In this document: positions 24,976-64,000 of the stretch, piece after piece | Position numbering within the stretch: the stretch's first letter is position 1 | How the letters are laid out: every line of letters begins with the position of its first letter | Assembly (NCBI GenBank): GCA_009729775.1 | Contig: GCA_009729775.1_4081.1 | Reading direction: 5' to 3' (one strand) | Origin: Escherichia coli | Lineage (GTDB): Bacteria; Pseudomonadota; Gammaproteobacteria; Enterobacterales; Enterobacteriaceae | DNA length: 64,000 nt | Program-made: the position numbers and the translations under genes | Notes under the pieces: model-generated | Seen by the model: only the letters and a program-made list of their open reading frames with translations | Databases searched by the model: none | What the model was told of the DNA's origin: nothing

Positions 24976-24982
24976 AAAATTA

Positions 24983-25016: not shown

Positions 25017-25112
25017 TATATTTGCTTTTGTCAAATAACATATTAATTGTTGGATAACAGCATAATAAAACTAAATATATACATATTAACAAGGTTATAA
25101 TGGAGGGTATAA

Positions 25113-37297: not shown

Positions 37298-37391
37298 GTA
37301 TATTGGTACATTAACTATTATATCATATTTTTATAAGTTGTCCCACTTATAAAAGAAGAGAACGGAAAATTCCGTTCTCATTATTTAGTAC

Positions 37392-48631: not shown

Positions 48632-48992
48632 TTATATTCTCCTATTATGGAATGACATCTTTATATTATTTATCTATCTGGAAGTATATTTTTAATTAAC
48701 TAAAGTGTCATCAACAGGGAACCAATTAATATTAACACAATATAAGTATCTTTTTCGTTTAGTGTGGTCAATATAGTTTACTGATATAGACCATTTTCCA
48801 TTTGTGTATACTTCGTATTTTTCAATTATACCGACAATCTTCTAAATTTTTTAAAAATATATTTAGTATGTGTATTGATTCTAACTGAGTTAAAACTATT
48901 TTACTGACATCTTGTATTGTTCTTTTTAGTATTTCTTCCATATCCATAATGTCCCTTTATAACATCAATATAAAGGTATTTAATTTTAAACA

Positions 48993-49020
48993 ATAAAAAA
49001 GGGAACCAAAAGGTTCCCTT
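48993..49020 (-). terminator. intrinsic terminator downstream of the sheath gene
   Basis: GGGAACC-aaaa-GGTTCCC hairpin flanked by A- and T-runs, starting a few nt after the sheath stop. Confidence 0.6.
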
Positions 49021-49026
49021 AGTGTT

Positions 49027-51690: not shown

Positions 51691-51784
51691 ATTAAATCCT
51701 CCAAAAATAATTGGTTATTCGAAATATATTCGTATAGTCTTATTTATTGAAGGATTTAATTGTCCAGTCCTTATTGTTTATAAT

Positions 51785-52411
51785 TTATGTATTAGAATAA
51801 ATAATGTCCATTGCTTTTTTATGTAAATCATCAATAGTACTGTTATTCTGTACAATTATATCAGGATTGTTTATTCCAATCCAAGCCCACTCAGATTCGT
51901 GTACTGATTCTAGTTCAACTGGTTTAATATTAATATCCCCTTTATTATAAGAGGCAGCCAAACCATACCAATGTGGTAGAACACGTTGAACTTCAATAAT
52001 AGTCCCATTATTCGATCTAATCATTTTTAATTCATTTGGAAAACGGCAATCAGTGATGATAATATTTCCATCTATGTCTTGCATTGATTTTTCTAAACTG
52101 AATACCCAAATATCATTATGAAAATACTTACGCAAAATATTAGTACCATAATTCTGCAATACCCATCGAGGGGATACATCATTACGACCTAACTTATCAC
52201 ACCAGTACTGATCCGGTTCTTCACGAATCTTACGACTTTCCTTAGTTGACCCCTCAAGCATTTCACGGTCCCATCCAAAGATGGCAGCAACTGAATCTTT
52301 TAGATTGGTTGCGAATGACATTCGTGTGTAACCATTATTAATAAAAGATTCACCAAATGTATCTTTACCACTTCCAATAGTTCCGTTAATTGCAATTATT
52401 TGTCTTCCCAT
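51785..52411 (-). CDS. deoxynucleoside monophosphate kinase (T4 gp1-like)
   Basis: P-loop GTIGSGKDT at the N-terminus; overall similarity to T4 gene 1 dNMP kinase (IITDCRFPNE region). Confidence 0.7.
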   Translation of the reverse strand: MGRQIIAINGTIGSGKDTFGESFINNGYTRMSFATNLKDSVAAIFGWDREMLEGSTKESRKIREEPDQYWCDKLGRNDVSPRWVLQNYGTNILRKYFHNDIWVFSLEKSMQDIDGNIIITDCRFPNELKMIRSNNGTIIEVQRVLPHWYGLAASYNKGDINIKPVELESVHESEWAWIGINNPDIIVQNNSTIDDLHKKAMDIIYSNT

Positions 52412-52429
52412 TATACTACTCCATGTATT

Positions 52430-52699
52430 TTATATAATTTCTATTAAATCCTTTCCTACTAAACTTTCAAGTAATCCAAGAATTGACTCATTACCATAAT
52501 ATATAGAAACATAAGTAATAAAAAATGTTTCCCCATCATCATCACGATATATACTCGCCCATGCATTTATTCGATCTCTACCGATAACATCAATGATTGA
52601 ATCTTTGATAAATTTCCAGTACTTTTCAGTTGATTCATAATCAAGCGTTGGTCTACCACAACGATATCTGTTATACGTTACATTTATGTTATTATTCAT
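52430..52699 (-). CDS. hypothetical protein
   Basis: 89 aa ORF with ATG start; preceded by an extended -10 (TGaTATAAT) at ~52727-52735 and a terminator hairpin at ~52745-52772. Confidence 0.55.
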   Translation of the reverse strand: MNNNINVTYNRYRCGRPTLDYESTEKYWKFIKDSIIDVIGRDRINAWASIYRDDDGETFFITYVSIYYGNESILGLLESLVGKDLIEII

Positions 52700-52744
52700 G
52701 ACAAGTTCCTTTAGATTAATATTATCATTATATCACATAATATG

Positions 52745-52772
52745 AAAAAAGACTCCATATAGGAGTCCTTTT
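52745..52772 (-). terminator. intrinsic terminator (GACTCC-atat-GGAGTC + T-run)
   Basis: Palindromic hairpin flanked by A6 and T-runs, directly after the stop of the neck-like gene. Confidence 0.5.
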
Positions 52773-52775
52773 AAT

Positions 52776-53567
52776 TTAACCAATAATCATACCGAGTGGT
52801 TCAGCACCATCTTGATAACGTTTCAAACGCTCTTTAAGCTGTTCTTGAAGCTGTAAACCTTCATTGCGTAAGGTATCACCATCCATAGAAAACGTTCCCT
52901 GTGGTCCAGGAAGCGATGCAAATTTAGCACGGTTACGACCCAACATAATCATTGCTTCGGATAAAGCCCAATCACGCAACCAAGGATAACTTTGCTGCCT
53001 TTGGAACAACAATGGTTCAGGAATATTATGATAGACGTGTAATAGTACTTCTTCAGTACCACGAATATCACGATCTATAATTAATTTTTTGGTCATTGGG
53101 TTAAATTGAAATATAATATCACGACCAAACATACGACCTACCAGTTCTTGGAACTGAAAACTAAAATCATATGTAGTTAGATCATATCCACCAGCATTTC
53201 GTGCTGAAGTCAATAAGTAAGTGTTGGTGAATGCTAGAGAGAACGGGTCTACTGAGTTCCCACTACCAGAACTTAAGTAACCATTACCATAACGATAAAT
53301 CTTTTTAACAATTTCAACTTCAGTTGGTAGCATATATACAGATTGTGAATCATAAAATTTCATATTTAAAAATGCTTCTTCTTTAGAAGCAGAACTCCAC
53401 GCTCTGTAATTCGATACCGCATTATCAATTGCAATTTCTAATTGACCATCAGTAATTTCTACCTCAACGGCCCCAGCACCCAACATTTGAGTGATAACAT
53501 CTTTCAGTTTTTCACGATGGTCAAAGTTAGGAGCAGCAGGGTTTCCACCCATATAATCGTAAGACAT
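52776..53567 (-). CDS. neck (head-tail joining) protein, T4 gp13-like
   Basis: N-terminal ...REKLKDVITQMLGAGAVEVEITDGQLEIAIDNAVSNY resembles the T4 gp13 N-terminus as recalled from memory. ORF track starts at ATG 53582; the ATG at 53567 follows GAGGTG by 7 nt. Confidence 0.5.
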   Translation of the reverse strand: MSYDYMGGNPAAPNFDHREKLKDVITQMLGAGAVEVEITDGQLEIAIDNAVSNYRAWSSASKEEAFLNMKFYDSQSVYMLPTEVEIVKKIYRYGNGYLSSGSGNSVDPFSLAFTNTYLLTSARNAGGYDLTTYDFSFQFQELVGRMFGRDIIFQFNPMTKKLIIDRDIRGTEEVLLHVYHNIPEPLLFQRQQSYPWLRDWALSEAMIMLGRNRAKFASLPGPQGTFSMDGDTLRNEGLQLQEQLKERLKRYQDGAEPLGMIIG

Positions 53568-53617
53568 AAAAAAGCACCTCATTAATGTTTATATACATTA
53601 TTTAGAGGTGCTAATAG

Positions 53618-53836
53618 TTATTTTGAATTATACAAGCAGTACAGGTATACCAATGGAGTAAAATGTTCGGAATCTATTATATATATTAACTGAGTAACAT
53701 ATATTCCATATAGATCTCGTGATTTATCTCTGTACATTAACAATGATTTATTTAAGTAAGGATCAACCCAGTACTTAATATCATTGTACTTCAACGTGTT
53801 GTTACGGTAACCTGATAGTTTTGAATTTTTATTCAA
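53618..53836 (-). CDS. hypothetical small protein
   Basis: 72 aa; 8-nt overlap with the upstream gene. Confidence 0.5.
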   Translation of the reverse strand: MNKNSKLSGYRNNTLKYNDIKYWVDPYLNKSLLMYRDKSRDLYGIYVTQLIYIIDSEHFTPLVYLYCLYNSK

Positions 53837-54206
53837 TTTTCTTACAATTACTCAGTAAGTGAATGATATCATCAGCAGTGAATGGTCCCAATACCAGAAC
53901 TTCTTCACCATTACCGAAAATGCTCAATGGCACTGATTGTTGACCAGCTAGATATTCAATTTGTTCCAGTTCGAAAATGTCATCAGCAGCATATACTACC
54001 TGCTCCATTTCATTATCTTTAATCCATGACTGCCAATGTTCTTTAAACTTCTTAGCTTCGTATTCTTGAACATAGTTAGGTGATTCAGGGTTGTATTGAT
54101 GTAACATAGTCATCCCAGCCATTACTAATTCTTTAGGGGATGGTGTAGAATCTTTCAGTACTACGATAGCTTGGATAGTTTTTACTTTAACGTCATTAGC
54201 AGCCAT
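53829..54206 (-). CDS. peptidyl-tRNA hydrolase PTH2-like protein
   Basis: N-terminal VKTIQAIVVLKDSTPSPKELVMAGMTMLHQY and C-terminal EEVLVLGPFTADDIIHLLSN resemble the Pth2 fold signature (VVVR.DL.M..GK.AAQ..HA / TVLA.GP...LID.VTGHLKL). Confidence 0.45.
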   Translation of the reverse strand: MAANDVKVKTIQAIVVLKDSTPSPKELVMAGMTMLHQYNPESPNYVQEYEAKKFKEHWQSWIKDNEMEQVVYAADDIFELEQIEYLAGQQSVPLSIFGNGEEVLVLGPFTADDIIHLLSNCKKIE

Positions 54207-54218
54207 TATATACCTCTA

Positions 54219-54536
54219 TTATAGAATGATTTTATTCTCAGGAACGAAAACTTTTGGAGTGTTTTCGATTGCTTTAATAGCATCAACATAAGCATCAACT
54301 AATGCAGGGTTTGCATCACTAACACTAATAATGTTGGATTTATAAAAAATAACATTTTTCTCCATACTAACAAACTCTAGATAATCACGAAGAATGATTT
54401 CACCATTTTCGTCAGTCCCTAGTTGTGCTGGGTAGTTAACTACAACAGCTTCAGCAGAATCGGTTTGAAGAACTGCTAGTACTGGGCCAATGTTATTGAT
54501 GTTTAGTAGTTTAACGGTCATAGTCATTTTTGTCAA
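54219..54536 (-). CDS. hypothetical protein
   Basis: 105 aa ORF packed between the macrodomain and Pth2-like genes. Confidence 0.6.
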   Translation of the reverse strand: MTKMTMTVKLLNINNIGPVLAVLQTDSAEAVVVNYPAQLGTDENGEIILRDYLEFVSMEKNVIFYKSNIISVSDANPALVDAYVDAIKAIENTPKVFVPENKIIL

Positions 54537-54546
54537 GTCCTTTTGT

Positions 54547-55023
54547 TTATTTTAGAATGTATAAGTGTTTTTCTGCATTGACCAGACGGTGATCAATGAT
54601 TTCTTTGATAACGTTCCAGTTACCGCCGCCCAAATCGGCTCCAATTTTCGGGAAATGTACATGAACATCTCGATCAACTTTACAAAAATAATTTAGATGT
54701 TTGAACACATCGTCAATTGCATCATAACTGACATATTTAGCACCGTCATTACCGTACATTTTTTGGGTAATACAGTTTGCAATAATCAAATTATCGTTAA
54801 TTGCTGAATATGCAATTTGTCCAATTCTAAGAAATCCCATTTCCTTTTCATATGCTTTATAATCATCATATGCCATTGGATAACGATTTCTTAGTTCTTT
54901 TGCAAAACCTGAACCCATTTTACCCTGTGCGTTACAACCATGAGCAATTATATGTAATGCATTTTGATCATCGGTAACAGTACTGAACAATTCAAACAGA
55001 TTACCTCTGTGTTCATGTATCAT
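54547..55023 (-). CDS. macrodomain protein (TARG1/OARD1-like ADP-ribosyl hydrolase)
   Basis: ALHIIAHGCNAQGKMGSGFAKELRNRYP and FPKIGADLGGGNW match the TARG1-type motifs (AHCISEDCRMGAGIA ... PRIGCGLDRLQW). Confidence 0.75.
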   Translation of the reverse strand: MIHEHRGNLFELFSTVTDDQNALHIIAHGCNAQGKMGSGFAKELRNRYPMAYDDYKAYEKEMGFLRIGQIAYSAINDNLIIANCITQKMYGNDGAKYVSYDAIDDVFKHLNYFCKVDRDVHVHFPKIGADLGGGNWNVIKEIIDHRLVNAEKHLYILK

Positions 55024-55033
55024 TATATTCTCC

Positions 55034-55063
55034 GAAAAGAAAGGACTCTTTTACAGAGTCCTT
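55034..55063 (-). terminator. terminator/attenuator hairpin upstream of the macrodomain gene
   Basis: AAGGACTCT-tttac-AGAGTCCTT stem followed on the minus strand by UCUUUUC, then GGAGAA SD and ATG. Confidence 0.45.
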
Positions 55064-55071
55064 ATTTTAAA

Positions 55072-55314
55072 TTATTCTTCTTCACCGAAACGGATTTTCT
55101 TTAATTCTTTTCGATGCTTTCTAGCTATTGTACTTTTGTGAAGTCTATTACTGCGTTTTGTGTCTTTTGTAATGTACCATGAATCTTCTGGTGCATCATA
55201 ATCACAAAATCCATCTTCCGTAATTGTTCCTAAAAATGCAGATTTTTTAGGAATATTAGTTTGAGCTTTAGCCTGAAATTGACCTTTTGCTAATTGTTCA
55301 CGAAAACTGAGCAT
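55072..55314 (-). CDS. hypothetical small basic protein
   Basis: ORF track start is TTG 55329; the ATG at 55314 (MLSFREQ...) follows GGGAGA by 7 nt. Confidence 0.5.
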   Translation of the reverse strand: MLSFREQLAKGQFQAKAQTNIPKKSAFLGTITEDGFCDYDAPEDSWYITKDTKRSNRLHKSTIARKHRKELKKIRFGEEE

Positions 55315-55360
55315 AATAGTATCTCCCAAATTGTTAAGAAGAACTTTTTGTTCTTCACAT

Positions 55361-55603
55361 TTATTTAGGGTTGCCAGAAACCTTCACATATTTGATAAAT
55401 GCCAAAATATCATCTTTACTAAAAGATTTTACAATAAATTCGACAGCCGAATCATACTGTTCTTGTTTAGATAGATATTCTTTCATTTTGTTAATTTTAA
55501 TCTGGGCTTTTTCTTTAGCTATTGAAATATCAGGAATTTTGAACTCTACTCCCAACGTATCAGCTAGTTGTTTTGCACGAGATGATACTTTTTCAATATC
55601 CAT
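55361..55603 (-). CDS. hypothetical small protein
   Basis: ORF track start is TTG 55612; the ATG at 55603 forms a TAATG stop/start overlap with the glutaredoxin gene. Confidence 0.55.
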   Translation of the reverse strand: MDIEKVSSRAKQLADTLGVEFKIPDISIAKEKAQIKINKMKEYLSKQEQYDSAVEFIVKSFSKDDILAFIKYVKVSGNPK

Positions 55604-55851
55604 TAGTTCCAACGACCTTCTTTAAGACCTTCAATAAATCCAGTACAACCACCTGGTACATAAATGTCATTTACGAAAATTTGAGGAACTTGACGAACTG
55701 GTTCACCACAAATTTCAGACAGTTTTGAACCATCGATACCTTCAGCAACAATATCTACAAACTCCATTTCAAATTTATTTTGTTCACATACAGCTTTTGC
55801 AGTGTCGCAAAATTTACAACCAGTCTTGCGACCATAAATTTTAACTTTCAT
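55603..55851 (-). CDS. glutaredoxin (T4 NrdC-like)
   Basis: 82 aa; CxxC active site in IYGRKTGCKFCDTAKAV; resembles T4 NrdC (CVYCDNAK). Confidence 0.75.
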   Translation of the reverse strand: MKVKIYGRKTGCKFCDTAKAVCEQNKFEMEFVDIVAEGIDGSKLSEICGEPVRQVPQIFVNDIYVPGGCTGFIEGLKEGRWN

Positions 55852-55852
55852 G

Positions 55853-56251
55853 TTATTTCCTTCTATTTCTTTGAAAAGCTTTAACAGCTTTAATAATACT
55901 GTTACACATTCGTTCAGTCAAATACTTTTGACATTCTCGTACATCAATGTACATGAACTTATCCAATTCTGGATGACTCTTACCATATCTATTAGTGTAA
56001 GTACTTTTACAAACTAATTCATCTGGTATTGGTTTGTCTTTGGCAGTATAAAAGAAAAGTACTAACCTTTTTCCCTTTCTATAGGATACATCACCAAGAA
56101 ACAGAAGATCATCTTCATCGATTTCGTATCCTGTCTCTTCGAAACATTCACGTACAGCAGCTTCTTTGAAAGTTTCATTACCCTCAGCTTTCCCTTTAGG
56201 TAAATCCCAATGATTCTGTCCGTGTTGTATGTCCGATAAGTATCTGACCAT
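55853..56251 (-). CDS. Nudix hydrolase
   Basis: Nudix box GKAEGNETFKEAAVRECFEETGYEI. ORF track begins with GTG 56254; ATG at 56251. An extended -10 (TGgTATAAT) lies ~12 nt upstream, suggesting a near-leaderless mRNA. Confidence 0.75.
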   Translation of the reverse strand: MVRYLSDIQHGQNHWDLPKGKAEGNETFKEAAVRECFEETGYEIDEDDLLFLGDVSYRKGKRLVLFFYTAKDKPIPDELVCKSTYTNRYGKSHPELDKFMYIDVRECQKYLTERMCNSIIKAVKAFQRNRRK

Positions 56252-56362
56252 CACGATAAAATATTATACCACAACTATAACGCATATCTTATCTCTTTGT
56301 CATCAATCGATGTTCAGATACTAATAATTATATCAGTTATTGGTTTTTTGTCCCACTATTTT

Positions 56363-57475
56363 TTAGAACATTTGTTTGATTGCTTCGTAACGAAGTTCAC
56401 AAACAAAATCACGAATTTCTGACGTTTCAAGTTCACCATCTTTGACCATTTGCTGAATATCAGGCAATTCAACATCAGTATAACGATCATAAACTTTAAT
56501 AATTAGATCTTCAAGTTCTAAATCAATTTCTTTTCGCAAAATGAAGTATTCCAAAACTTTATAAAGGAATTCTTCACCTCCGTTATTTTTAATATTCATA
56601 TCCAATAAAATATTACCCATTTCAATAGGGGTCTTTTTACGGAATGTTTTGATATCATCACGGAAACGTTTGATATAATTACTAAATTTAACATACTTAA
56701 CTGGAACTTTAATAGCACCGTTAAGTACTGAATCATTATTTACTTCTTCATTTTCAAGAAGAATAGACCACAGAAAATATGGTTTATATACATCCGTACA
56801 GTTCTCTGCAATATAATCAATAAGGTCTAAATTCTTTTTGGTCAAAGATGTATTAAACACCTTTTCGTAATAACCAAATTTACTTAGCGTCTTAAGGAAC
56901 TTTGCAGGCTTTTCTTCGGAAAATGCTTTTTCGAATTCCACAAAAACACGGTCAGGAACAAGATGATTTAGTTCACCACTATTGACCATTCCAATAGCGA
57001 GTTCCTCAGTGCTTTCATGGATAGTAAAGTCTGAATAACGAGTAGCAAATCGAGCAAGACGTAACACGCGTAATGGATCTTCTTTAAAATGGTCAGAAAC
57101 ATGACGTAGTATCTTGTTCTTGATATCAGCTTTACCACCGTATGGATCGATGTGAATTTGTAGTACTGGATCATACGCAATTGCATTAATTGTAAGGTCA
57201 CGGCGATACAAATCTTGTTCTAGTGTTACGCCTTTTGTATCCACTTCAAAGCCACCATATCCAGTACCAGTTTTACGCTCAGTACGGGCTAATGCGTGTT
57301 CATTACCTTCTGGACTTAGATATACTGGGAAATCCTTACCTACTTGCTTATAGCCAATACTTTGCAAGTACTTAAGATCAGATTCGGATGCACCAACAAT
57401 GACATAATCTTTGTCTTTTGCACGGATGCCCATTAAACGGTCACGGACGTAACCGCCAACCAAATACTTTTTCAT
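56363..57475 (-). CDS. cca: CCA-adding tRNA nucleotidyltransferase (class II head domain)
   Basis: MKKYLVGGYVRDRLMGIRAKDKDYVIVGAS parallels E. coli Cca MKIYLVGGAVRDALLG...DRDWVVVG; the RRDLTINA motif is present. At 370 aa it is shorter than E. coli Cca, so an HD domain is probably absent. Confidence 0.85.
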   Translation of the reverse strand: MKKYLVGGYVRDRLMGIRAKDKDYVIVGASESDLKYLQSIGYKQVGKDFPVYLSPEGNEHALARTERKTGTGYGGFEVDTKGVTLEQDLYRRDLTINAIAYDPVLQIHIDPYGGKADIKNKILRHVSDHFKEDPLRVLRLARFATRYSDFTIHESTEELAIGMVNSGELNHLVPDRVFVEFEKAFSEEKPAKFLKTLSKFGYYEKVFNTSLTKKNLDLIDYIAENCTDVYKPYFLWSILLENEEVNNDSVLNGAIKVPVKYVKFSNYIKRFRDDIKTFRKKTPIEMGNILLDMNIKNNGGEEFLYKVLEYFILRKEIDLELEDLIIKVYDRYTDVELPDIQQMVKDGELETSEIRDFVCELRYEAIKQMF

Positions 57476-57476
57476 G

Positions 57477-57599
57477 TTATTCCCCCATCAGCCAATCACG
57501 TAGACGTTCCCAGAAGCCTTTTGGTTGGTATTCTGGGTATTCATATTCATCTGTGCCTTGCTCGGAAACACCCCAATCTTCTTCTAACATAGCAATCAT
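57477..57599 (-). CDS. small ORF (40 aa, acidic, Trp-containing) not in ORF track
   Basis: MIAMLEEDWGVSEQGTDEYEYPEYQPKGFWERLRDWLMGE; GGAGG 4 nt upstream; exactly fills the gap between two genes, with TAACATG-type junction to the cca start. Confidence 0.3.
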   Translation of the reverse strand: MIAMLEEDWGVSEQGTDEYEYPEYQPKGFWERLRDWLMGE

Positions 57600-57610
57600 A
57601 ATGCCTCCAA

Positions 57611-58033
57611 TTAAATTAATCTATCACGTAGACGGTCGTAATATTTTTTGTGTATAGCTAGTATACACTGATATGCAGAATAGTCAATACCAAATGTATC
57701 ATCAATGAACATGTACTGATCAAGTGTTTCCGGTCCATTATCATCAACTGGTAATGTCCCTTCTTTTTTTGATAGTGTGTGCCACATCAACTCACTTTCA
57801 ATATGGTGAGTTGCGTATGTCAATTCTATCTTACTTTTTCGTAGTAAAATTAACAATTCATCATTGTCGTCGAGTGCATTACGAAATTTAATACGAACTG
57901 TACCCTGGAAATTATTAGTGTACATAACACGATGATGATTGTATGAAATCAAACCACGTCTTTCAGTACTGATTTCGTGTTCAGCAAAGTACTTTAACGT
58001 TTCATTAAATTTTGGAATTTTAGTAACGTCCAA
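57611..58033 (-). CDS. hypothetical protein, paralogue B
   Basis: C-terminal EGTLPVDDNGPETLDQYMFIDDTFGIDYSAYQ is paralogous to the upstream gene; apparent TTG start behind GAGGA, overlapping the upstream gene by 14 nt. Confidence 0.6.
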   Translation of the reverse strand: MDVTKIPKFNETLKYFAEHEISTERRGLISYNHHRVMYTNNFQGTVRIKFRNALDDNDELLILLRKSKIELTYATHHIESELMWHTLSKKEGTLPVDDNGPETLDQYMFIDDTFGIDYSAYQCILAIHKKYYDRLRDRLI

Positions 58034-58436
58034 TCACATAATCCTCATAAAGTTCGTATACCCTCATTATACTCTGATATGTATCAAAGTCAATACCAAA
58101 GGTATCCTCAATGAACTGATATTGCAAAAACTCTTCCTCTGTAGCAGCAATAGGAAGAGTCCCGTTTCGTTGTTCTGTGGATTGAACATCCTCAATATAC
58201 ATCAACACTATACCTTCATCCAGATTTATATCTATCATAAAAACATCTTCACTATAAAATATGTTATATGTACGGATGAAGAGATTTCCTGTTCTATCAT
58301 AACTTGACACGTGTGTTTCATAATACATTTTATCTAAACTAAAGAACAAACCTGTACTATCTGGCTTTTTAGTATTTTTTAATTTAATTTCGATAGCATC
58401 AATAATAGGTTTAATATCAAATTTTTTCATAGACAA
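58020..58436 (-). CDS. hypothetical protein, paralogue A
   Basis: NGTLPIAATEEEFLQYQFIEDTFGIDFDTYQ; 138 aa. Confidence 0.6.
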   Translation of the reverse strand: MSMKKFDIKPIIDAIEIKLKNTKKPDSTGLFFSLDKMYYETHVSSYDRTGNLFIRTYNIFYSEDVFMIDINLDEGIVLMYIEDVQSTEQRNGTLPIAATEEEFLQYQFIEDTFGIDFDTYQSIMRVYELYEDYVIGRY

Positions 58437-58612
58437 ATCTCATATCGATTAGTGTTTGGATCATAGCAATAATTATCATTAACTTTAACACCAGGTTTAA
58501 GTGTTATTGTTGTTCCTACTTCAGTACTGGATTCCGCATCACAGTAAATCATCACACCAACTCCTGCGAGTAAGGCTACGATACATACAATTACACCAAT
58601 GGTATATTCCAT
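58427..58612 (-). CDS. small single-pass membrane protein
   Basis: 61 aa; N-terminal hydrophobic helix IGVIVCIVALLAGVGVMIY; Cys-rich C-terminus. Confidence 0.5.
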   Translation of the reverse strand: MEYTIGVIVCIVALLAGVGVMIYCDAESSTEVGTTITLKPGVKVNDNYCYDPNTNRYEICL

Positions 58613-58625
58613 TTCAATTCCTCGG

Positions 58626-59021
58626 TTATAAAAAGTAATTATACAGTTTATTGTACAATATAAAAAGGTCTTTCACATTATCATAAGTAATATCAGATAC
58701 ATCATGAATTAATGATAACTGAAAAAATGAAGCTTCGTCTATTTCTGCTGGAATTATAACATCACCATCGTCTTCGTCCATTTTATTAGTGTAGTATTTT
58801 ATGTGATCTACATTCAACTCAATAGAGAACGCAATGTTGGTTTTTGTATAATCTTCAATTAATCCAATATATTGAGATTTTTCATTAATAAAAAATCCAA
58901 TCCCAACACAACGGTTATCTGGATATGGATAGTACCATCTATTAATAACTAGGTGTTCAGGTAAGTCCATATCATGTGTTGATATTATAGATTTTACAAT
59001 TTCCATCCAGGAATAATTCAT
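58626..59021 (-). CDS. hypothetical protein
   Basis: 131 aa; GGAG SD; downstream of the HPF terminator. Confidence 0.6.
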   Translation of the reverse strand: MNYSWMEIVKSIISTHDMDLPEHLVINRWYYPYPDNRCVGIGFFINEKSQYIGLIEDYTKTNIAFSIELNVDHIKYYTNKMDEDDGDVIIPAEIDEASFFQLSLIHDVSDITYDNVKDLFILYNKLYNYFL

Positions 59022-59033
59022 AATTAAAACTCC

Positions 59034-59065
59034 ATAAGAAAAGGGACAGAATTAATCTGTCCCTT
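59034..59065 (-). terminator. terminator hairpin downstream of hpf
   Basis: AAGGGACAG-aattaat-CTGTCCCTT followed by a U-rich tract on the minus strand. Confidence 0.45.
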
Positions 59066-59074
59066 TAGTATATA

Positions 59075-59407
59075 TTACTCTTCGTTTTCTGTCAAATCAT
59101 CAAGAACTGGGTGTTCTGGATGGTTTCGGCGGTGTAATTTAATGCTTTTGTCTTTACTGAATACAGTTTCCATTTTTTCAAATGAATCACCAATTGCTTT
59201 GTATAAATCTGCTGCATCGGCAGTAACTGATTTACTACCTGATGTTAGAGTCACAGAGTATTGAGACTTATGCTCTTTCTTCACATGAACTTCAATATCC
59301 ATTACAGTTGAAGTACGGAACTTTTCAAGACATTTAGCACCATCGTAAATTGCATCTTGAATTGCTGTAGTAAAATCAACATTACCTTGAATATTTAATT
59401 TTAGCAT
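59075..59407 (-). CDS. hpf: ribosome hibernation promoting factor (HPF/RaiA/YfiA family)
   Basis: MLKLNIQGNVDFTTAIQDAIYDGAKCLEKF... aligns with E. coli HPF MQLNITGNNVEITEALREFVTAKFAKLEQYF and the C-terminal LYKAIGDSFEKMETVFSKDK with DMYAAIDGLIDKLARQLTKHK; AAGGTAGG SD. Confidence 0.75.
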   Translation of the reverse strand: MLKLNIQGNVDFTTAIQDAIYDGAKCLEKFRTSTVMDIEVHVKKEHKSQYSVTLTSGSKSVTADAADLYKAIGDSFEKMETVFSKDKSIKLHRRNHPEHPVLDDLTENEE

Positions 59408-59423
59408 AATTTACCTACCTTTT

Positions 59424-60383
59424 TTAGAGTGAACTTAACAACAAATCTGCTCGGTTTGTAACTTGACGATACCATAAGGAATTCATTATTTCTTTTTTAA
59501 ATTTCTTAGGGTTATCATTTTTTACACTGTTCCAAAGTTTATTAAACGAAGCTAACTTATCTACTCCCATTGTATAGCACATTTCAAAAAGAATACGTTG
59601 TTGTTCTTTGGTCAGATTTACTGCTTGTTTTTTCTGCATCAATAATAAAAAGTCATCATATGTTCTTTTCATATCTTGCATTAAAAGTTTGTTGGCTTGA
59701 GCTTTGGTAATACCGTTTCTGTACTTGATAGCATCAGATTCTTTTCTTCCCAAATAATGCCCATAACCGATTGTATAATTACCTTTCATATCCTTGTAAG
59801 GATGAAATTTAGAATTGTGGAAAGGAACTCCGACTTTCCCACCAAGTAAACGGCGTTTGTTCTTGGACTGAAATTCAATTGAACCTTCAGCTTCTTTGAT
59901 GTGATTGACAATTTCTGGATCATTATAATCAAACTGTACAGTCACATCTGGTAACAATACGTTCTTCAAATCCTCTTTTGTTGGGATAAAGATACCCTGA
60001 GAAGTATGAAGAGTAGCATTTAAATTGATATTTTTCAACAAAATAACATACTCTTCAAGTTGTACATTTTTAGGTTTAAACTTTTTAGCAATAGAATAAT
60101 AACTATCACCAGGTTGAACCGTATAATGCTTCTCGCCGCGTGGAACATCCTTTGATATTTCTACCTTTGGTAATTCCTGCTTTTGAATTTGCGTAACTTG
60201 TGGTTTTAAATTGTGTACCTGACTTTCGTCCGATGATGATACACGATCATTTTGAGAAAAACCATAAAATCCAATCGCAGCGACAAGTACTGTGCAAACT
60301 AGAACACCATAAGTAGTCTTAGTTTTCAGTGCTTTTTTCGCTTGTTTCAAAACGCCTCCTTTGTTGATTGTTAAGATGGGCAA
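59424..60383 (-). CDS. membrane-anchored lysozyme: signal-anchor + LysM + GH24 (T4 lysozyme-like) domain
   Basis: GNYTIGYGHYLG and SLWYRQVTNRADLL parallel T4 lysozyme YTIGIGHLL and SRWYNQTPNRAKRV; LysM-like YTVQPGDSYYSIAKKF; N-terminal TM helix YGVLVCTVLVAAIGFYGF. No ATG before residue ~200; candidate starts are the TTG at 60383 or the TTG at 60350, which lies 4 nt after AAAGGAGG. Confidence 0.85.
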   Translation of the reverse strand: MPILTINKGGVLKQAKKALKTKTTYGVLVCTVLVAAIGFYGFSQNDRVSSSDESQVHNLKPQVTQIQKQELPKVEISKDVPRGEKHYTVQPGDSYYSIAKKFKPKNVQLEEYVILLKNINLNATLHTSQGIFIPTKEDLKNVLLPDVTVQFDYNDPEIVNHIKEAEGSIEFQSKNKRRLLGGKVGVPFHNSKFHPYKDMKGNYTIGYGHYLGRKESDAIKYRNGITKAQANKLLMQDMKRTYDDFLLLMQKKQAVNLTKEQQRILFEMCYTMGVDKLASFNKLWNSVKNDNPKKFKKEIMNSLWYRQVTNRADLLLSSL

Positions 60384-60466
60384 TCACAAAGATGGCAAAG
60401 AGGCCATTTGCAAAAGCCTCATCGGACTTTCTACAGTACAAAAACGTTCTTTTCAAATGTTTAAGT

Positions 60467-60494
60467 AGTATAGCATATTTTTATTTTATTACAA
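60467..60494 (-). promoter_or_regulatory. sigma70-like promoter (TTGTAA-N16-TGcTATACT) upstream of the lysozyme gene
   Basis: Minus-strand -35/-10 pair with extended -10 TG; ~115-nt leader containing a GAGGC...GCCTC hairpin. Confidence 0.4.
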
Positions 60495-60518
60495 GACATA
60501 TTTACTGTAAAAACCACA

Positions 60519-60929
60519 TTAATCGTAGTAGGTTCTACCTACAGTTATGTGATATTTAAAGTACTTGGTTGGTAGTCCTAGTTCATTTCTAATATGTGTG
60601 ATGAAATCATCTTCAAATTCAATGATAAAGAATGAACCTGGATTCTTTTTATCTTTTACTATCTCAATACAAGGATTGAACTTTATCTTTACTTTCATTC
60701 CATCGTATTTTTTCCAGAACTCTTCATGTGGTGGTACTTCACCACGCACTATACTAACATGTGCTCCCCATTGAGGATCTTTAACGTCAATATGTAAATC
60801 AGTTCTGATGAAGTACTGGTAGTATCTAACCAACTGTAATGGAAGTTGCAGTACTAACCAGAAGTCCTTCTTCTTTTTCATAGTGCCACGGTCTGGATCA
60901 TACACCAGAGTTCCTTCCATTTCAATCAT
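60519..60929 (-). CDS. 2H phosphoesterase (LigT/Acb1-like cyclic phosphodiesterase fold)
   Basis: Two H-x-[ST]-x motifs about 70 aa apart (GAHVSIVRG and KYHITVGR), the hallmark of the 2H superfamily; 136 aa. Confidence 0.5.
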   Translation of the reverse strand: MIEMEGTLVYDPDRGTMKKKKDFWLVLQLPLQLVRYYQYFIRTDLHIDVKDPQWGAHVSIVRGEVPPHEEFWKKYDGMKVKIKFNPCIEIVKDKKNPGSFFIIEFEDDFITHIRNELGLPTKYFKYHITVGRTYYD

Positions 60930-60936
60930 ATTTTAC

Positions 60937-61140
60937 CTATAAAATTACATATATGTTTTTATTTTCAATACGAACATATGTTTCCAAAACATCTTTCGGA
61001 ATTTTATTACTTGTTTTGAACCATGTAGTATTCTCTACTAAAACAAAAGTTTCACCTTCAGTTTCACCAAATGTACTTAGTGCATAAATGAAGTAATTTG
61101 GTGCTGCACTACAATAGATATCAGCATTAATTTCAATCAT
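60937..61140 (-). CDS. hypothetical small protein
   Basis: 67 aa ORF. Confidence 0.5.
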   Translation of the reverse strand: MIEINADIYCSAAPNYFIYALSTFGETEGETFVLVENTTWFKTSNKIPKDVLETYVRIENKNIYVIL

Positions 61141-61143
61141 ATG

Positions 61144-61275
61144 TTACACCACAATAAAGCTTAATACAACGAGTGTAATAAACACACCCACAATAGCAGT
61201 CATTTCTGGGTTTGCATCATATGTATAGCGTATACATTTTAGAAAATCTTTACCAAATTTCTTTAGTCCATTCAT
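61144..61275 (-). CDS. small membrane protein ORF (43 aa) not in ORF track
   Basis: MNGLKKFGKDFLKCIRYTYDANPEMTAIVGVFITLVVLSFIVV; AAGGA SD 6 nt upstream; C-terminal TM helix; stop abuts the next start. Confidence 0.3.
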   Translation of the reverse strand: MNGLKKFGKDFLKCIRYTYDANPEMTAIVGVFITLVVLSFIVV

Positions 61276-61286
61276 ATATTTTCCTT

Positions 61287-61643
61287 TTATTTCTTGTGTA
61301 AAGGTTCATCACTTTCATAATAAATTGTATCATTATTTCGCTCTATAGTAAAGCTCTTTTGACACAACTCTTCAGCTAAACCCTTTGCATAGTTTAATAC
61401 ATCTCGGTTGAGATATACTTCTTCTTTTGGAAAGCGTGGGTACTGAATAATACGAGCACACATCCCACTTTCAAGACCGCCAGTGTAGATATATTCACAG
61501 GGAATTAATTGTACACAAAAGCCATACTTAAACGCAAATTTTCTTGTGTACTCTCTTGCTGTTTGAATATCACCAGCAATATGGATATTCCAGTACTGTG
61601 TCTCCACTGTACCTTTATCGATGTATTTCATACTCATCTCCAA
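61287..61643 (-). CDS. hypothetical protein
   Basis: 118 aa ORF. Confidence 0.6.
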   Translation of the reverse strand: MEMSMKYIDKGTVETQYWNIHIAGDIQTAREYTRKFAFKYGFCVQLIPCEYIYTGGLESGMCARIIQYPRFPKEEVYLNRDVLNYAKGLAEELCQKSFTIERNNDTIYYESDEPLHKK

Positions 61644-61660
61644 TTATAGCACTAAAAATC

Positions 61661-62050
61661 TCACTTTCCCAACTCTTCTATGATTCTTTTTATTGAATCA
61701 TGATTTTCCAGACATAAAGTACTGTAATTTCTGCCAGTTTTTTCATTGAGGTCGTCGATTTCAATCATAAGATATCCATATGTAATATCTTGAACCCTAC
61801 TTCGTTTTACCCTTGAGTACAGCTTGATTGGTACTGATACACGAGTATTCAAAAACAATTCAGATAAATCATAACGATACACCTGGTATTCATTCTTGGA
61901 ACGCTTACGACTGTACGATTCTAAACACTGCGGATAACGTCTATCAAAAATACTGGTCCTTAGCTGAAGAATCATCGGATCTAACTTATGTGAGTAATAT
62001 TTTTTAATTATTTTCTCAAAACGCTTAATGTGACGTTTCTTCCATCTCAT
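61661..62050 (-). CDS. basic hypothetical protein (possible nucleic-acid binding)
   Basis: 129 aa, Lys/Arg-rich N-terminal half; 4-nt overlap with the upstream gene. Confidence 0.6.
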   Translation of the reverse strand: MRWKKRHIKRFEKIIKKYYSHKLDPMILQLRTSIFDRRYPQCLESYSRKRSKNEYQVYRYDLSELFLNTRVSVPIKLYSRVKRSRVQDITYGYLMIEIDDLNEKTGRNYSTLCLENHDSIKRIIEELGK

Positions 62051-62544
62051 GTTCTAACTCCTTTCAATAATACAATAGGAAAATACTGTGTATCTCTATC
62101 AGAAATACTATTACAGTACTCAATAATTTCTTGATGGAGTGTGTTTATATAAATGCTAGGATATGGAATTGGTGTTTGTATTAGTCCAGAACTATAAACA
62201 CAATCAGTTCTTTGACAATCAATATAGTGTGTTGTTGGTATACCTTTACCACGTTCCTCAACTACAATTGAGTACGTGTCAGCAATAAAGATGAACGCAT
62301 TGTTAATTGATACATATTGGAGGGAATACACATCATCATGAACTTCAATCAAAGGACCATCAAAATTCATCAATACCGAACGGCGATATCCTAACACATC
62401 ACTCATTGCATCGAACTGTTCTTGTGATGAAAGAAAACAAAAACACGTATCACGACATACGTCTATAAAACGCTTAAATGTTTCTGTTTCTATAAGCATA
62501 TAATTTTCCTTAAAAAAGACCCCACATAGTGAGGTCAAATACAT
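62047..62544 (-). CDS. hypothetical protein
   Basis: 165 aa ORF; stop abuts the upstream gene. Confidence 0.6.
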   Translation of the reverse strand: MYLTSLCGVFFKENYMLIETETFKRFIDVCRDTCFCFLSSQEQFDAMSDVLGYRRSVLMNFDGPLIEVHDDVYSLQYVSINNAFIFIADTYSIVVEERGKGIPTTHYIDCQRTDCVYSSGLIQTPIPYPSIYINTLHQEIIEYCNSISDRDTQYFPIVLLKGVRT

Positions 62545-62769
62545 TTAATCGTTATCATCATCCAATGCGTCACGGTAAACATAATAAACATGTGCACCTA
62601 GCAAAGCAATAAGTACAATAAAGACTAACCAGAATGGTACAAAATGCAGTACTAGAGAAAATGCCAGTACTGTAATAACCATTACAACTGAACTGAAAAT
62701 AAGACGGACTGCTTTTTCAAATCCAGATAGTAAATTTTTAAAGATTTTTTTCATAAATGAATCAACCAT
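62545..62769 (-). CDS. two-TM small membrane protein (holin-like)
   Basis: 74 aa; two hydrophobic helices (AVRLIFSSVVMVITVLAFSLVL, FWLVFIVLIALLGAHVYYVY) and a charged C-terminal tail RDALDDDND; GAGGAT SD. Confidence 0.5.
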   Translation of the reverse strand: MVDSFMKKIFKNLLSGFEKAVRLIFSSVVMVITVLAFSLVLHFVPFWLVFIVLIALLGAHVYYVYRDALDDDND

Positions 62770-63112
62770 TTTTAATCCTCAAGAAAGTATGCTTACATTT
62801 TAGTTTATTACCATAGAATGAAATAGGAACATTAAACATTTCAATCTTATCTTCTTTCAACAAACGTAGAATATCAGGATCATTTTTTGTTTGAATACAA
62901 TGAAGACCATTAACCTGAATTTCTAAACCTTTCTTTAGATATTCATAAATTTTTTGACGACGCATCCCGCCATAACTATCATTATGTACCACATCACGTA
63001 GTTCTTTATATTCTTCCTTTAATGTTCGGTCTACAAGTGTTCCATCTTTCTTCCTGATCTCTGCAATACATTTATATTGATTTGAACCTCTAAGAGCCAT
63101 GTTGTACCTCAT
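62762..63112 (-). CDS. hypothetical protein
   Basis: 116 aa ORF, basic. Confidence 0.6.
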   Translation of the reverse strand: MRYNMALRGSNQYKCIAEIRKKDGTLVDRTLKEEYKELRDVVHNDSYGGMRRQKIYEYLKKGLEIQVNGLHCIQTKNDPDILRLLKEDKIEMFNVPISFYGNKLKCKHTFLRIKNG

Positions 63113-63569
63113 TAGGGTATTTTTTCATCAATTCGTGTAAACGCTGAATCTCTTGTTCTTTTTTTCTATCACTCTCGTATTTTCGAGAAAGTTTCTTTTT
63201 TGTATTTGCTTCTTCTAATCTAATATCAGTACAGAATTTGTCATTTTTTAAAAAATTGATACGCAATGCATTGTAAACAGCATTGAAATCGTTTCCTAAT
63301 TCTTTAGACGTGTCAGTGTAATTATGAAAATACATGTTATTTGTCATATTTACATGTTCAATTACTGCACCATTATGAGTTACGATAAACATTATATCGC
63401 CATACTGTTCATGTGGTTTTGAACGATATAGATATATATGTTGACGTAAATAATCTTTTAATTCATGTTCAATGCCACTTTGTTCATAACTTTGATATAC
63501 TAAAACCTCACCATCAGTTGAACTGTTGTCAGATTCATATGGTTCGCGGATAATTATAAGATTATACAT
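63090..63569 (-). CDS. hypothetical protein
   Basis: 159 aa ORF, Lys/Glu-rich C-terminus. Confidence 0.6.
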   Translation of the reverse strand: MYNLIIIREPYESDNSSTDGEVLVYQSYEQSGIEHELKDYLRQHIYLYRSKPHEQYGDIMFIVTHNGAVIEHVNMTNNMYFHNYTDTSKELGNDFNAVYNALRINFLKNDKFCTDIRLEEANTKKKLSRKYESDRKKEQEIQRLHELMKKYPNEVQHGS

Positions 63570-63577
63570 ATTACTCC

Positions 63578-63859
63578 TTATACCGGAGATACGGTACTCA
63601 ACATTAGTAAAGCTGTATTTTCATCAATTTCATGATAGTTGTCGCATACAAGTGTTTCCAACAAATCAGGATGATAATAATAATGTTCATAATCAGTATC
63701 ATTAGGAATATGATGATATACAAATACAATATCAAAAACATCATCATCATTTTCACACTTGAAACGCTTTAATTCATCGACACTTTCAACAAAGCCATAT
63801 TCTTCAAAAGCAGTTGTACCATCTGGTAGTTTCATCCATGCACTTGCAACAATTTTCAT
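63578..63859 (-). CDS. hypothetical acidic protein
   Basis: 93 aa ORF. Confidence 0.55.
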   Translation of the reverse strand: MKIVASAWMKLPDGTTAFEEYGFVESVDELKRFKCENDDDVFDIVFVYHHIPNDTDYEHYYYHPDLLETLVCDNYHEIDENTALLMLSTVSPV

Positions 63860-63876
63860 AAATTTGTGAATCCTTA

Positions 63877-64000
63877 TTATTTTGTAATGTTTAGTTTAGA
63901 AACGAAGTATTCTTTGGCTTCTTCATATGTCATTGAAGTATACATAGGATTCCATTTATCGTCAATATCGATAAGTACTTTAACTTCCATTACATCTTCT
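63877..64000 (-). CDS. possible small ORF running off the window edge (partial)
   Basis: Minus-strand frame ...MEVKVLIDIDDKWNPMYTSMTYEEAKEYFVSKLNITK-stop is open to the window end; the start may lie beyond the window. Confidence 0.25.
   Translation of the reverse strand, partial: EDVMEVKVLIDIDDKWNPMYTSMTYEEAKEYFVSKLNITK

Follow-up and report, generated by a model that had tools for sequence, protein, structure and literature searches.

The locus and its genes

The DNA described here is a stretch of 64,000 nucleotides (nt), referred to as the window, from contig GCA_009729775.1_4081.1 of an assembly filed under Escherichia coli, and the element in question is the gene block at its positions 52430-63859. 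The block contains 29 open reading frames (ORFs), all encoded on the minus strand and separated by gaps of no more than 168 nt or by small overlaps, and it probably represents a conserved "host-interface" block of a 121Q-type (Asteriusvirus, RaK2-like) jumbo myovirus, placed inside the neck and tail late cluster and composed of four groups of genes. A preliminary description, made from the letters of the sequence before any database search, had presented the interval as an early accessory island packed with candidate counter-defence and translation-takeover genes; the run of small, tightly packed and co-oriented genes that it reported is confirmed.

Over its full length, the interval is 99.3% identical at the nucleotide level to Escherichia phage 121Q (positions 250682-262111 of the record), a 348.5-kb jumbo myovirus of the genus Asteriusvirus. 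A nucleotide search matched 42 phage records and, besides 121Q, some thirty-odd genomes of coliphages and Salmonella phages show 80-98% identity over most of the interval. Genes 522-549 of the RefSeq record of 121Q (NC_025447) cover the interval, and the names already given there are macro domain, glutaredoxin, nudix hydrolase, tRNA nucleotidyltransferase, HPF/RaiA, LysM protein and head-tail adaptor Ad2. The gene order of the block is the same as in these 121Q genes and in the orthologous blocks of PBECO4, phAPEC6, Sharanji and fEgEco12; no difference of substance separates it from the 121Q block, and the window is a close variant from the same phage species group.

The remainder of the window is a phage tail, baseplate and fibre module. 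Transcription on the minus strand would pass from position 63859 down the block and on into the genes for the neck protein, a deoxynucleoside monophosphate (dNMP) kinase, the tail sheath (49027-51690) and three tail-tube proteins; the genes of the block are co-oriented with the neck, sheath and tube genes. No tRNA gene was found in the window, and an Rfam search of positions 48000-64000 returned no RNA family. An HNH endonuclease gene lies near the block in 121Q. Below position ~40,200, linear mapping of the 121Q genes onto the window fails for 21 genes, which indicates that the window differs there by insertions and deletions. In purified virions of phAPEC6, a phage in which ~83% of the predicted proteins are without assigned function, only gp280c (the neck protein) was detected among the products gp279c-gp301c, and by this proteome most products of the block are non-virion proteins.

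A conserved backbone with variable cassettes

The 29 window proteins were compared with the matching regions of relatives at increasing distance. The order dNMP kinase, neck, Pth2-like protein, g545, macrodomain, g543, g542, glutaredoxin, Nudix and CCA enzyme is kept in EJP2 (Escherichia), Hallingskeid (Erwinia), Munch (Salmonella), Klebsiella phage OU509535 and a RaK2-like contig, relatives across which amino-acid identity is ~35-80% and nucleotide similarity is almost gone. The lysozyme is present in all five of them, and the 2H phosphoesterase and g528 in most. Because the order of this backbone is conserved across genera, the block is, by sequence comparison, a conserved backbone with variable cassettes and not accessory as a whole, and the discrete accessory island first proposed is not borne out.

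Rapid turnover holds for g549, g547, a paralogue array, g535, g529, g526 and g522, and not for the ten-gene backbone. Apart from the array, these genes (two of which, g535 and g529, encode membrane peptides) were found in close relatives only and diverge fast. Moreover, a thymidine kinase gene is inserted in coliphages of ~85% identity (loci 12820-13401 and 11820-12404) and is absent from the window, while fEgEco12 and Turkey5 carry extra small genes in the block. HPF, g535, g549 and g527 show 70-88% identity where their flanking genes show 97-100%, and these local dips point to allelic replacement or fast divergence.

Between the CCA gene and the HPF or lysozyme gene, every relative carries one to five tandem copies of a single paralogue family: one copy in the RaK2-like contig and in Klebsiella phage OU509535, two in Munch and Turkey5, three in the window, four in fEgEco12 and EJP2, and five in Hallingskeid. 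The tandem pair noticed in the preliminary description is thus real, both copies belonging to phrog_20693 and sharing 41% identity over their C-terminal 54 residues (BLASTP, E 9e-12), and an iterative profile search against the ORFs of all loci joined a third, more divergent copy to the family. No Pfam, PDB or PADLOC match was obtained for these proteins. Copy-number variation at a fixed site would be the pattern expected of a conflict-driven family.

Table 1. Genes and predicted signals of the block, by position in the window (aa, amino acids)
Feature	Positions	Strand	Remarks
g549, 89 aa	52430-52699	-	phrog_34967; close relatives only; extended -10 promoter-like TGTGATATAAT ahead at 52727-52735
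Hairpin + T-run, terminator-like	52751-52767	-	3' of neck gene
Neck / head-tail adaptor Ad2 (T4 gp13-like), virion protein	52776-53582	-	phrog_211 2.4e-41
g547, 72 aa, basic	53618-53836	-	close relatives only
Pth2-like protein, 125 aa	53829-54206	-	remote homologue of archaeo-eukaryotic peptidyl-tRNA hydrolase 2
g545, 102 aa, acidic	54219-54527	-	phrog_527; kept in all relatives
Macrodomain, DarG/AdfM(Tk.4)-like, 158 aa	54547-55023	-	
Strong hairpin + T-run, terminator-like	55041-55063	-	between g543 and macrodomain gene
g543, 85 aa, basic	55072-55329	-	67-68% conserved across genera
g542, 80 aa	55361-55603	-	
Glutaredoxin, CKFC motif, NrdC-like	55603-55851	-	
Nudix hydrolase	55853-56285	-	ancestral start ATG 56285; annotated ORF 55853-56251/56254
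Promoter-like GGGACA-N16-(TG)ATATAAT	56327-56354	-	gap between CCA and Nudix genes
Class II tRNA nucleotidyltransferase (CCA-adding type), 370 aa	56363-57475	-	
g538, 40 aa, acidic	57477-57599	-	
Paralogue array copy 1, 140 aa	57611-58033	-	
Paralogue array copy 2, 136-138 aa	58020-58436	-	
g535, 61-aa single-pass membrane peptide	58427-58612	-	fast-diverging, 70-87% in near-identical phages
Paralogue array copy 3, 126-131 aa	58626-59021	-	more divergent
Hairpin, 11-bp stem, + T-run, terminator-like	59040-59066	-	3' of HPF; overlapped by TTGACA-17-TATACT site 59067-59095
Short HPF/RaiA-family ribosome-binding protein, 110 aa	59075-59407	-	
LysM + GH24 lysozyme, N-terminal membrane anchor	59424-60350	-	not found in virions
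Sigma-70-like TTGTAA-16-(TG)CTATACT	60467-60494	-	168-nt gap upstream of lysozyme-HPF pair
2H-SAK phosphoesterase, 136 aa	60519-60929	-	H57-x-S59, H127-x-T129
g530, 67 aa	60937-61140	-	
g529, 43-aa membrane peptide	61144-61275	-	
g528, 116 aa, SAM lyase / SAM-AMP lyase-like fold (PII-like)	61287-61637	-	invariant E56, Q93-x-S95
g527, 129 aa, basic	61661-62050	-	
g526, 150 aa	62047-62499	-	fast-diverging
g525, 69-74 aa, hydrophobic stretch + acidic C-terminal tail	62545-62754	-	
g524, 112 aa, basic	62762-63100	-	
g523, 159 aa	63090-63569	-	
g522, 93 aa, acidic	63578-63859	-	close relatives only

The macrodomain and its relation to DarTG

The macrodomain protein gives a weak Pfam match (E 0.009) and is recovered by PHROG 335 (1e-45), by PDB entry 2fg1 (1.3e-15) and by the DarG profile of PADLOC (1.2e-10). 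Its family occurs in 2,131 phage records, the T4-type tk.4 included, and, aligned to T4 Tk.4 by BLASTP, the window protein is 30% identical over 123 residues (E 2e-12). T4 Tk.4 and the AdfM protein of chimalliviruses are, like the window protein, stand-alone macrodomains of ~155 aa. The closest solved relatives of the window protein are BT1257 and SCO6735 and not DarG; they are followed by yeast Poa1p, an ADP-ribose-1''-phosphate phosphatase, and then by 5m31 (E 0.0045), with which the Thermus aquaticus DarG2 macrodomain 5M3E is listed. The last is 5m3i (E 0.023), which we take to be the Mycobacterium tuberculosis DarG macrodomain. With respect to the catalytic N22 and K80 of T. aquaticus DarG2, residues N31 (in HGCN) and K88 (in ITQK) of the window protein are candidates by position only, and not by a residue-level alignment to DarG; K88 aligns to a Tyr in T4 Tk.4.

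The name TARG1-like, under which this protein had been listed, holds for the macrodomain and not for TARG1, since no TARG1 chain was named among the PDB matches with E <= 1. The nearest PDB relatives presumably share one macrodomain class with TARG1, and the label is acceptable only in that broad sense.

According to a 2025 preprint, tk.4 is the sole T4 gene needed for growth on a host carrying DarTG2, for which it was named adfM, and it is dispensable on a plain host; a 2026 paper reports that the AdfM of a chimallivirus strips from DNA the ADP-ribose added by DarT2. Given the homology to Tk.4, the match to the DarG profile and these results in T4 and chimalliviruses, the window protein is best described as a predicted AdfM-family macrodomain, and its homology makes it a credible counter-defence gene.

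g528 and the SAM lyase fold

The protein g528 was matched by no Pfam family and no PDB sequence. RaK2, Munch and Hallingskeid all have conserved counterparts, and the invariant residues of the alignment are H19, D23, Y51-T-G-G-x-E56-x-G58, R62, Q93-x-S95 and E99. Its AlphaFold model, built as a monomer, has a predicted local distance difference test (pLDDT) score of 92 and is matched by Foldseek to the fold of S-adenosylmethionine (SAM) and SAM-AMP lyases (E 1.2e-4, template-modelling (TM) score 0.65). In these enzymes the T-loop ends, on its C-terminal side, in an essential Glu, and the B-loop contains a conserved Gln (PMC7877911, PMC12255297). In the model, E56 is found at the start of beta3 and Q93, together with S95, between helix 2 and beta4, and both residues match the lyase positions by topology as judged from the published descriptions, not by superposition of coordinates. 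A Glu ending the beta2-beta3 loop and a Gln-x-Ser after helix 2 are shared between g528, the phage SAM lyases (T3 SAMase and Svi3-3; PDB 6ZM9) and the SAM-AMP lyases (from Clostridium botulinum and AcrIIIB4; PDB 9GAB).

The SAM-lyase fold of g528 is therefore well supported by the model. SAM lyases of the T3 type overcome type I restriction and BREX, and phage SAM-AMP lyases have been proposed as anti-CRISPRs (PMC12255297); by its modelled fold and predicted activity, g528 is a second credible counter-defence gene. The GenBank record of fEgEco12 labels the orthologue "SAM hydrolase", and the idea of a SAM lyase is therefore not entirely new.

The 2H phosphoesterase

The protein previously listed as a two-His 2H phosphoesterase is indeed one by its motifs, its family and its fold. 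The motifs are H57-V-S59 and H127-I-T129, with H57, H127 and T129 invariant and S59 kept in at least 90% of 28 sequences. The family PF22547 (2H-SAK) scores 26.0 bits against a cutoff of 27 in the window protein and is matched by 25 of the 28 listed homologues. The AF2 model has a pLDDT of 89, and its credible PDB matches are all 2H-fold proteins, matched weakly (Acb1, Usb1 and LigT; TM 0.41-0.48).

The possibility that this protein is Acb1 was considered and ruled out. T4 Acb1 (57B), an anti-CBASS nuclease, is, like the window protein, a small stand-alone 2H-fold protein of similar size, but it matches PF23474 (2.7e-60), which the window protein does not, and a profile comparison of the two with hhalign is not significant (probability 0.5%, E 0.12). 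Because the Pfam families are different and no profile similarity exists, the protein is filed as a 2H-SAK phosphoesterase and not as Acb1, despite Acb1 being its top, weak Foldseek match; degradation of signalling nucleotides is a possible activity. Comparative work proposes that phage 2H proteins open 2',3'-cyclic phosphate RNA ends and ADP-ribose-1'',2''-cyclic phosphate, with Macro and Nudix proteins processing the products (PMC7824862, PMC9503650). An RNA ligase gene, absent from the window, is found inside the same block in Munch (locus 24469-25677) and Hallingskeid (locus 7958-9211), which fits such a 2H-Macro-Nudix chain.

Genes predicted to act on tRNA or ribosomes

Three genes of the block are predicted by their sequence families to act on tRNA or ribosomes, namely those for the CCA enzyme, the Pth2-like protein and HPF. 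The CCA enzyme contains the class II nucleotidyltransferase head domain (PF01743, 7.3e-19) and RNA-binding domain (PF12627, 4.4e-8) and matches the tRNA nucleotidyltransferase family PHROG 2244 (2.5e-116), in agreement with the earlier call, its specificity for CCA, as opposed to poly(A) or A alone, being putative. No Pfam match was found in it to the HD domain, the phosphatase domain of the multifunctional E. coli enzyme, and the label "multifunctional CCA protein" of some records is therefore unsupported. A scan of viral contigs with this protein retrieved four loci only. The phage Sharanji, 97.9% identical to the window over the block, carries seven tRNA genes (locus 9712-13954); the 3' CCA is encoded in those for Met, Arg and Ser-UGA and is not encoded in the other four (Thr, Asn, Ser-ACU and Gly), which argues for an ordinary maturation role of the enzyme. 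Additionally, cleavage of the tRNA tail is a known immune mechanism, and the repair of clipped tails is a plausible second role.

The Pth2-like assignment was recovered at the level of the family and not of the single protein: the window protein alone does not match PF01981 convincingly (E 0.18), while nine of 11 family members do (best 5.6e-7). The top PDB match of the family profile is the archaeal Pth2 2zv3, at an E of only 0.37, and in the GenBank records of two relatives the orthologue is labelled peptidyl- or aminoacyl-tRNA hydrolase. The catalytic residues of archaeal Pth2 are a Lys and an Asp, and in the phage family K25 is near-invariant.

HPF is the short, single-domain form of the HPF/S30AE family and was correctly named before (PF02482, 4.2e-9). 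Its best PDB match is 4v8h_AX, annotated as "Probable sigma(54) modulation protein" (7.9e-4), which we take to be E. coli HPF on the 70S ribosome, and the chains named HPF, 6gzx and 6gzq, follow at 0.0026. Two alleles of the gene can be distinguished, one 99-100% identical to that of the window in 121Q, PBECO4 and phAPEC6 and the other 84% identical in Sharanji, G17, SP27 and others, where the flanks are 97-100% identical. HPF is present in EJP2 and Hallingskeid, is annotated in Munch and is absent from two Klebsiella-type genomes, which are RaK2-like phages without HPF. A literature search found no characterised phage HPF.

The Nudix-glutaredoxin unit and a conserved frameshift

The Nudix hydrolase and glutaredoxin named in the preliminary description are both supported by Pfam matches and active-site motifs. 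The glutaredoxin matches PF00462 (2.1e-8) and has C-K-F-C at residues 12-15; the Nudix protein matches PF00293 (1.1e-12), and the Nudix box GKAEGNETFKEAAVRECFEETGY in its translation fits G-x5-E-x7-R-E-U-x-E-E-x-G-U. In the window (55603-56285) a stop codon and one base stand between the two genes, and they form one fused ORF in EJP2 (226 aa; locus 15849-16526) and Hallingskeid (228 aa; locus 16064-16747); this fusion in two relatives argues for a joint function. The tail genes include a second Nudix gene (MutT-like, 121Q gene 578), at ~19.2-19.7 kb by approximate linear mapping.

The reading frame for the full Nudix fold is not uninterrupted, as an extra C at position 56222 splits the first 21 codons from the rest. 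This base is present in all eight Asteriusvirus genomes examined (86-100% nucleotide identity to the window over the Nudix segment), in the invariant string CAT ACA ACA C GGA CAG, and the gene is uninterrupted in four outgroup phages. Counted from the ATG at 56285, the first 21 codons lie in one frame, and the Nudix box is read in +1 relative to them. Of the seven variable sites upstream of the extra C, six are synonymous and one exchanges Ile and Val in the ancestral frame, as opposed to one synonymous and six non-synonymous in the annotated frame; downstream there are 26, with 16 synonymous and 10 non-synonymous in the +1 frame and two and 24, respectively, in the ancestral frame. A conserved AAGAG precedes the ancestral ATG, and no Shine-Dalgarno sequence was found at the annotated internal start. 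Since the substitution pattern switches frame at the extra C, the sequences give good evidence that both pieces are translated.

At the shift site, the codon read in frame is CGG and the one read in +1 is GGA. CGG is a rare codon in E. coli, and the phage tRNA set includes Thr(UGU) and Gly(UCC), which read ACA and GGA, and no reader of CGG. A quadruplet-decoding tRNA was considered as a cause of frameshifting and rejected, as ARAGORN assigned normal three-base anticodons to all seven Sharanji tRNAs. No slippery re-pairing site is evident at the shift site, which counts against simple slippage. We put forward only tentatively, and with more doubt than confidence, that the Nudix(-glutaredoxin) enzyme of all 121Q-type phages may be made by programmed +1 ribosomal frameshifting at CAT-ACA-ACA-C-GGA; alternatively, the gene could be split, with both products, of 29 and 133 aa, retained. 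If programmed, the shift would be an uncommon way of regulating a phage accessory gene and would give the junction peptide ...GHTTGQNHWDLPK; the yield of the enzyme would then follow the state of the tRNA pool and would link an enzyme that clears ADP-ribose or nucleotides to the translation stress addressed by the CCA, Pth2-like and HPF genes. An "extended -10 promoter" TGTGGTATAAT at 56263-56271 was also rejected; it is part of the ancestral coding sequence of Nudix, which is conserved, and in phage A4 it carries a synonymous change.

Structural, lysis and small genes

The preliminary description did not mention two ordinary late genes of the interval, those for the neck protein and for the LysM + GH24 lysozyme. 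The probable true start of the neck gene is near 53567, and the late-type motif CTAAATAA lies ahead of it at 53598-53605. The lysozyme is probably an endolysin, predicted to resemble SAR or otherwise anchored endolysins. The several membrane peptides reported earlier are three, g535, g529 and g525, some of which may be lysis proteins; the hydrophobic stretch of g525 is sufficient for two membrane spans and gives it a predicted holin-like shape.

The gene g543 has the late-type motif CTAAATAA 32 nt upstream, at 55361-55368, and a hairpin on both sides; no other non-structural gene of the block has such a motif. An orthologue is absent from the annotation of phAPEC6, so that the virion proteome of that phage could not have revealed it; g543 may code for a small protein of the late phase or of the virion. 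For g545, an exhaustive HMMER search retrieved only 15 representative relatives, whose alignment contains no invariant catalytic-looking residues.

Promoter-like motifs and timing

Timing was judged from motifs alone; a literature search found no Asteriusvirus transcriptome, and promoter statistics were computed on positions 244682-314600 of the 121Q record. The T4 late promoter TATAAATA was tried and rejected, with no match in the window against 10.9 ± 2.9 expected, and was replaced by the enriched motif [AC]TAAATA[AT]. Of the 21 sites of this motif in ~70 kb of 121Q, 12 fall within 5-80 nt upstream of a co-oriented start, a zone that makes up ~4% of positions. These 12 sites lie 16-59 nt upstream of nearly exclusively structural or lysis genes, such as those for the sheath, two tube proteins, the long tail fibre, several virion proteins, the spanin and the neck protein; inside the block the motif was found ahead of the neck gene and g543 only. 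The motif is, as a candidate drawn from sequence, likely to be the late promoter of this group of phages.

Extended -10 sites (TGnTATAAT) are in upstream zones in six of 18 cases, all of them ahead of non-structural genes, including g549, g528, the Nudix unit, a ClpA-like gene and gene 565. The window has two copies of the composite GGGACA-N16-(TG)ATATAAT, where 0.11 would be expected, at 37317-37344 and 56327-56354 on the minus strand; both are intergenic and before non-structural genes, and the composite may represent a phage-specific early or middle promoter class. Generic sigma-70 matches are at chance level (78, compared with 77.8 in shuffled sequence). Terminator-like sites, on the other hand, number 18 against 6.5 ± 2.6 in shuffles, and hairpin and T-run elements follow HPF, g543 and the neck gene. 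Because hairpin terminators and promoter-like sites cut the block into several short units, it appears to be a mosaic of such units, mostly with host-type promoters and interleaved with late genes, and not one operon.

Proposed function of the block and alternative explanations

As a host-interface block, the genes described above would act at several levels; these activities, like the timing of expression, are predictions that start from the observed families and folds, synteny, copy-number variation and absence from virions. The macrodomain would remove the ADP-ribose added to DNA by DarT2 or, alternatively, act as an ADP-ribose-1''-phosphate phosphatase, while g528 would be a trimeric enzyme of the SAM- or SAM-AMP-lyase type directed against restriction-modification, BREX or type III CRISPR. 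The 2H-SAK and Nudix(-glutaredoxin) proteins would open cyclic phosphates of the 2',3' or 1'',2'' type and clear away ADP-ribose derivatives. The CCA enzyme would finish the four phage tRNAs encoded without CCA and could mend clipped tails, the Pth2-like protein would free tRNA from stalled peptidyl-tRNA, and the short HPF would bind the 30S decoding region. Ordinary late functions would be provided by the neck protein, the membrane-anchored endolysin and possibly the holin-like peptides, and the remaining genes would be variable cassettes, including the tandem paralogue array.

Several observations weigh against this interpretation. About 15 ORFs remained without any assignment after the searches. 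In g528, the T-loop has 2-4 residues in place of the 10-12 of the solved lyases, no similarity to these lyases was detected at the sequence level, and the destruction of SAM sits oddly with the SAM-dependent DNA methyltransferases that 121Q-type phages encode. The best PDB match of the 2H model, Acb1 7T26, is weak (E 0.01, TM 0.44). The invariant Asn99 of the Pth2-like family (in FGNGEE) pairs, in a low-confidence alignment, with the Asp of ...SIIRD in 2zv3, and the protein may be a modified or non-catalytic relative of Pth2. Moreover, HPF could be a host-derived passenger gene.

A different explanation, which we consider rather unlikely, is that the block is an auxiliary housekeeping set that tops up the metabolism of the host for a very large phage and targets no host defence. 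The CCA enzyme would then mature tRNAs, the glutaredoxin feed ribonucleotide reductase, the Nudix protein sanitise nucleotide pools and the dNMP kinase (with thymidine kinase in relatives) make precursors, while the macrodomain and 2H proteins would clear by-products of the phage RNA ligase or of tRNA processing, and HPF and Pth2 would tune the use of ribosomes. The four tRNA genes without CCA, the adjoining dNMP kinase gene and the thymidine kinase gene inserted in relatives agree with such a set, as do the NrdC-like annotation of the glutaredoxin, a conserved and non-mobile synteny typical of core auxiliary genes, and the presence of Poa1p among the PDB matches of the macrodomain. Nevertheless, the T4 homologue of the macrodomain is needed against DarTG2 and not on a plain host, PMC7877911 and PMC12255297 describe only counter-defence and CRISPR signalling as roles of the SAM lyase fold, and the variable array and hyper-divergent genes, such as HPF (84%) and g535 (70-87%) in genomes otherwise 97-100% identical, look conflict-driven.

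It is less probable still that, as the preliminary description held, the interval is a discrete accessory island expressed early, in which most of the unannotated small ORFs encode anti-defence or takeover proteins not described before. Sigma-70-type and extended -10-like sites do stand ahead of g549, g528, the Nudix unit and the pair of lysozyme and HPF genes, the products are not found in virions, and g549, g547, g522, g526, g535 and g529 diverge fast and occur in close relatives only; but the backbone is conserved across genera, a neck gene and a probable endolysin gene lie inside the interval, late-type motifs stand ahead of the neck gene and g543, shuffled sequence gives as many sigma-70-like matches, and in a PADLOC scan of ten of the proteins only the macrodomain (DarG) and the Nudix protein matched. 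Least probable among these explanations is a hyperplastic "junk drawer", a permissive site amid essential late genes in which unrelated morons have gathered without functional coherence between neighbours. The gain and loss of cassettes (thymidine kinase, RNA ligase, small genes, HPF and paralogue number) and the HNH endonuclease gene nearby in 121Q would be expected of such a site, a view opposed by the order that ten genes share in different genera in spite of an identity of only 35-80%, by the fusion of Nudix and glutaredoxin in two lineages and by the known biochemical chain that links Macro, 2H and Nudix.

Part of what had been proposed is supported. At least two genes, those for the macrodomain and g528, are credible counter-defence genes, and three are predicted to act on tRNA or ribosomes; the neck protein, the probable endolysin and the ordinary explanation of the CCA enzyme weaken the proposal. 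Among the small ORFs counted as belonging to no family, about 15 remain so and g528 resolves to the SAM-lyase fold. These results temper the view of every small ORF as an anti-defence gene, as structural and lysis genes are among them and the role of the CCA enzyme is plain maturation. Phages of the RaK2/121Q type are under development for therapy, and the finding next to their sheath gene of a block with an AdfM homologue, a SAM-lyase-fold protein, a 2H-SAK protein and a trio for tRNA and ribosome maintenance gives predictions of the defences that would limit them, namely DarTG2, SAM-dependent restriction or BREX, and nucleases of the tRNA tail or anticodon.

Comparison with known systems

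The genome, most of the family names (RefSeq) and the functional framework (PMC7824862, PMC9503650) were already known. What is added here is the link to AdfM, the fold of g528, the exclusion of Acb1, the picture of a backbone with cassettes and a paralogue array, the plain role of the CCA enzyme, the candidate late-promoter motif and the conserved Nudix frameshift.

By analogy, the block looks like a distant counterpart of the tk-rI and 57B-1 regions of T4, where non-structural genes (tk-tk.4, 57B and gene 1) also lie near lysis-control and virion genes. Positions 57000-78000 of T4 group tk, tk.4/adfM, the starvation-inducible regulator rI.-1, 57B/acb1 and the dNMP kinase gene 1. Gene 518 of 121Q, just beyond the interval, encodes an rI.-1-like protein.

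A broader parallel is the RNA-repair and NAD-ADP-ribose network of jumbo phages described by Iyer, Burroughs, Aravind and colleagues in 2021 and 2022, in which "group 2.2" jumbo phages answer tRNA-cleaving and ADP-ribose-based immunity (PMC7824862, PMC9503650). The framework covers Macro, 2H, Nudix, KptA, CCA-type and PTH2 genes. These papers do not name the block: 121Q comes up only on account of its hairy fibres, the 2022 paper makes no mention of 121Q, PBECO4 or RaK2, and in the 2021 paper the word "hibernation" does not occur and HPF is not discussed. The components that this network has in common with the window are 2H, Macro, Nudix, a CCA-type nucleotidyltransferase and PTH2, to which relatives of the window add an RNA ligase.

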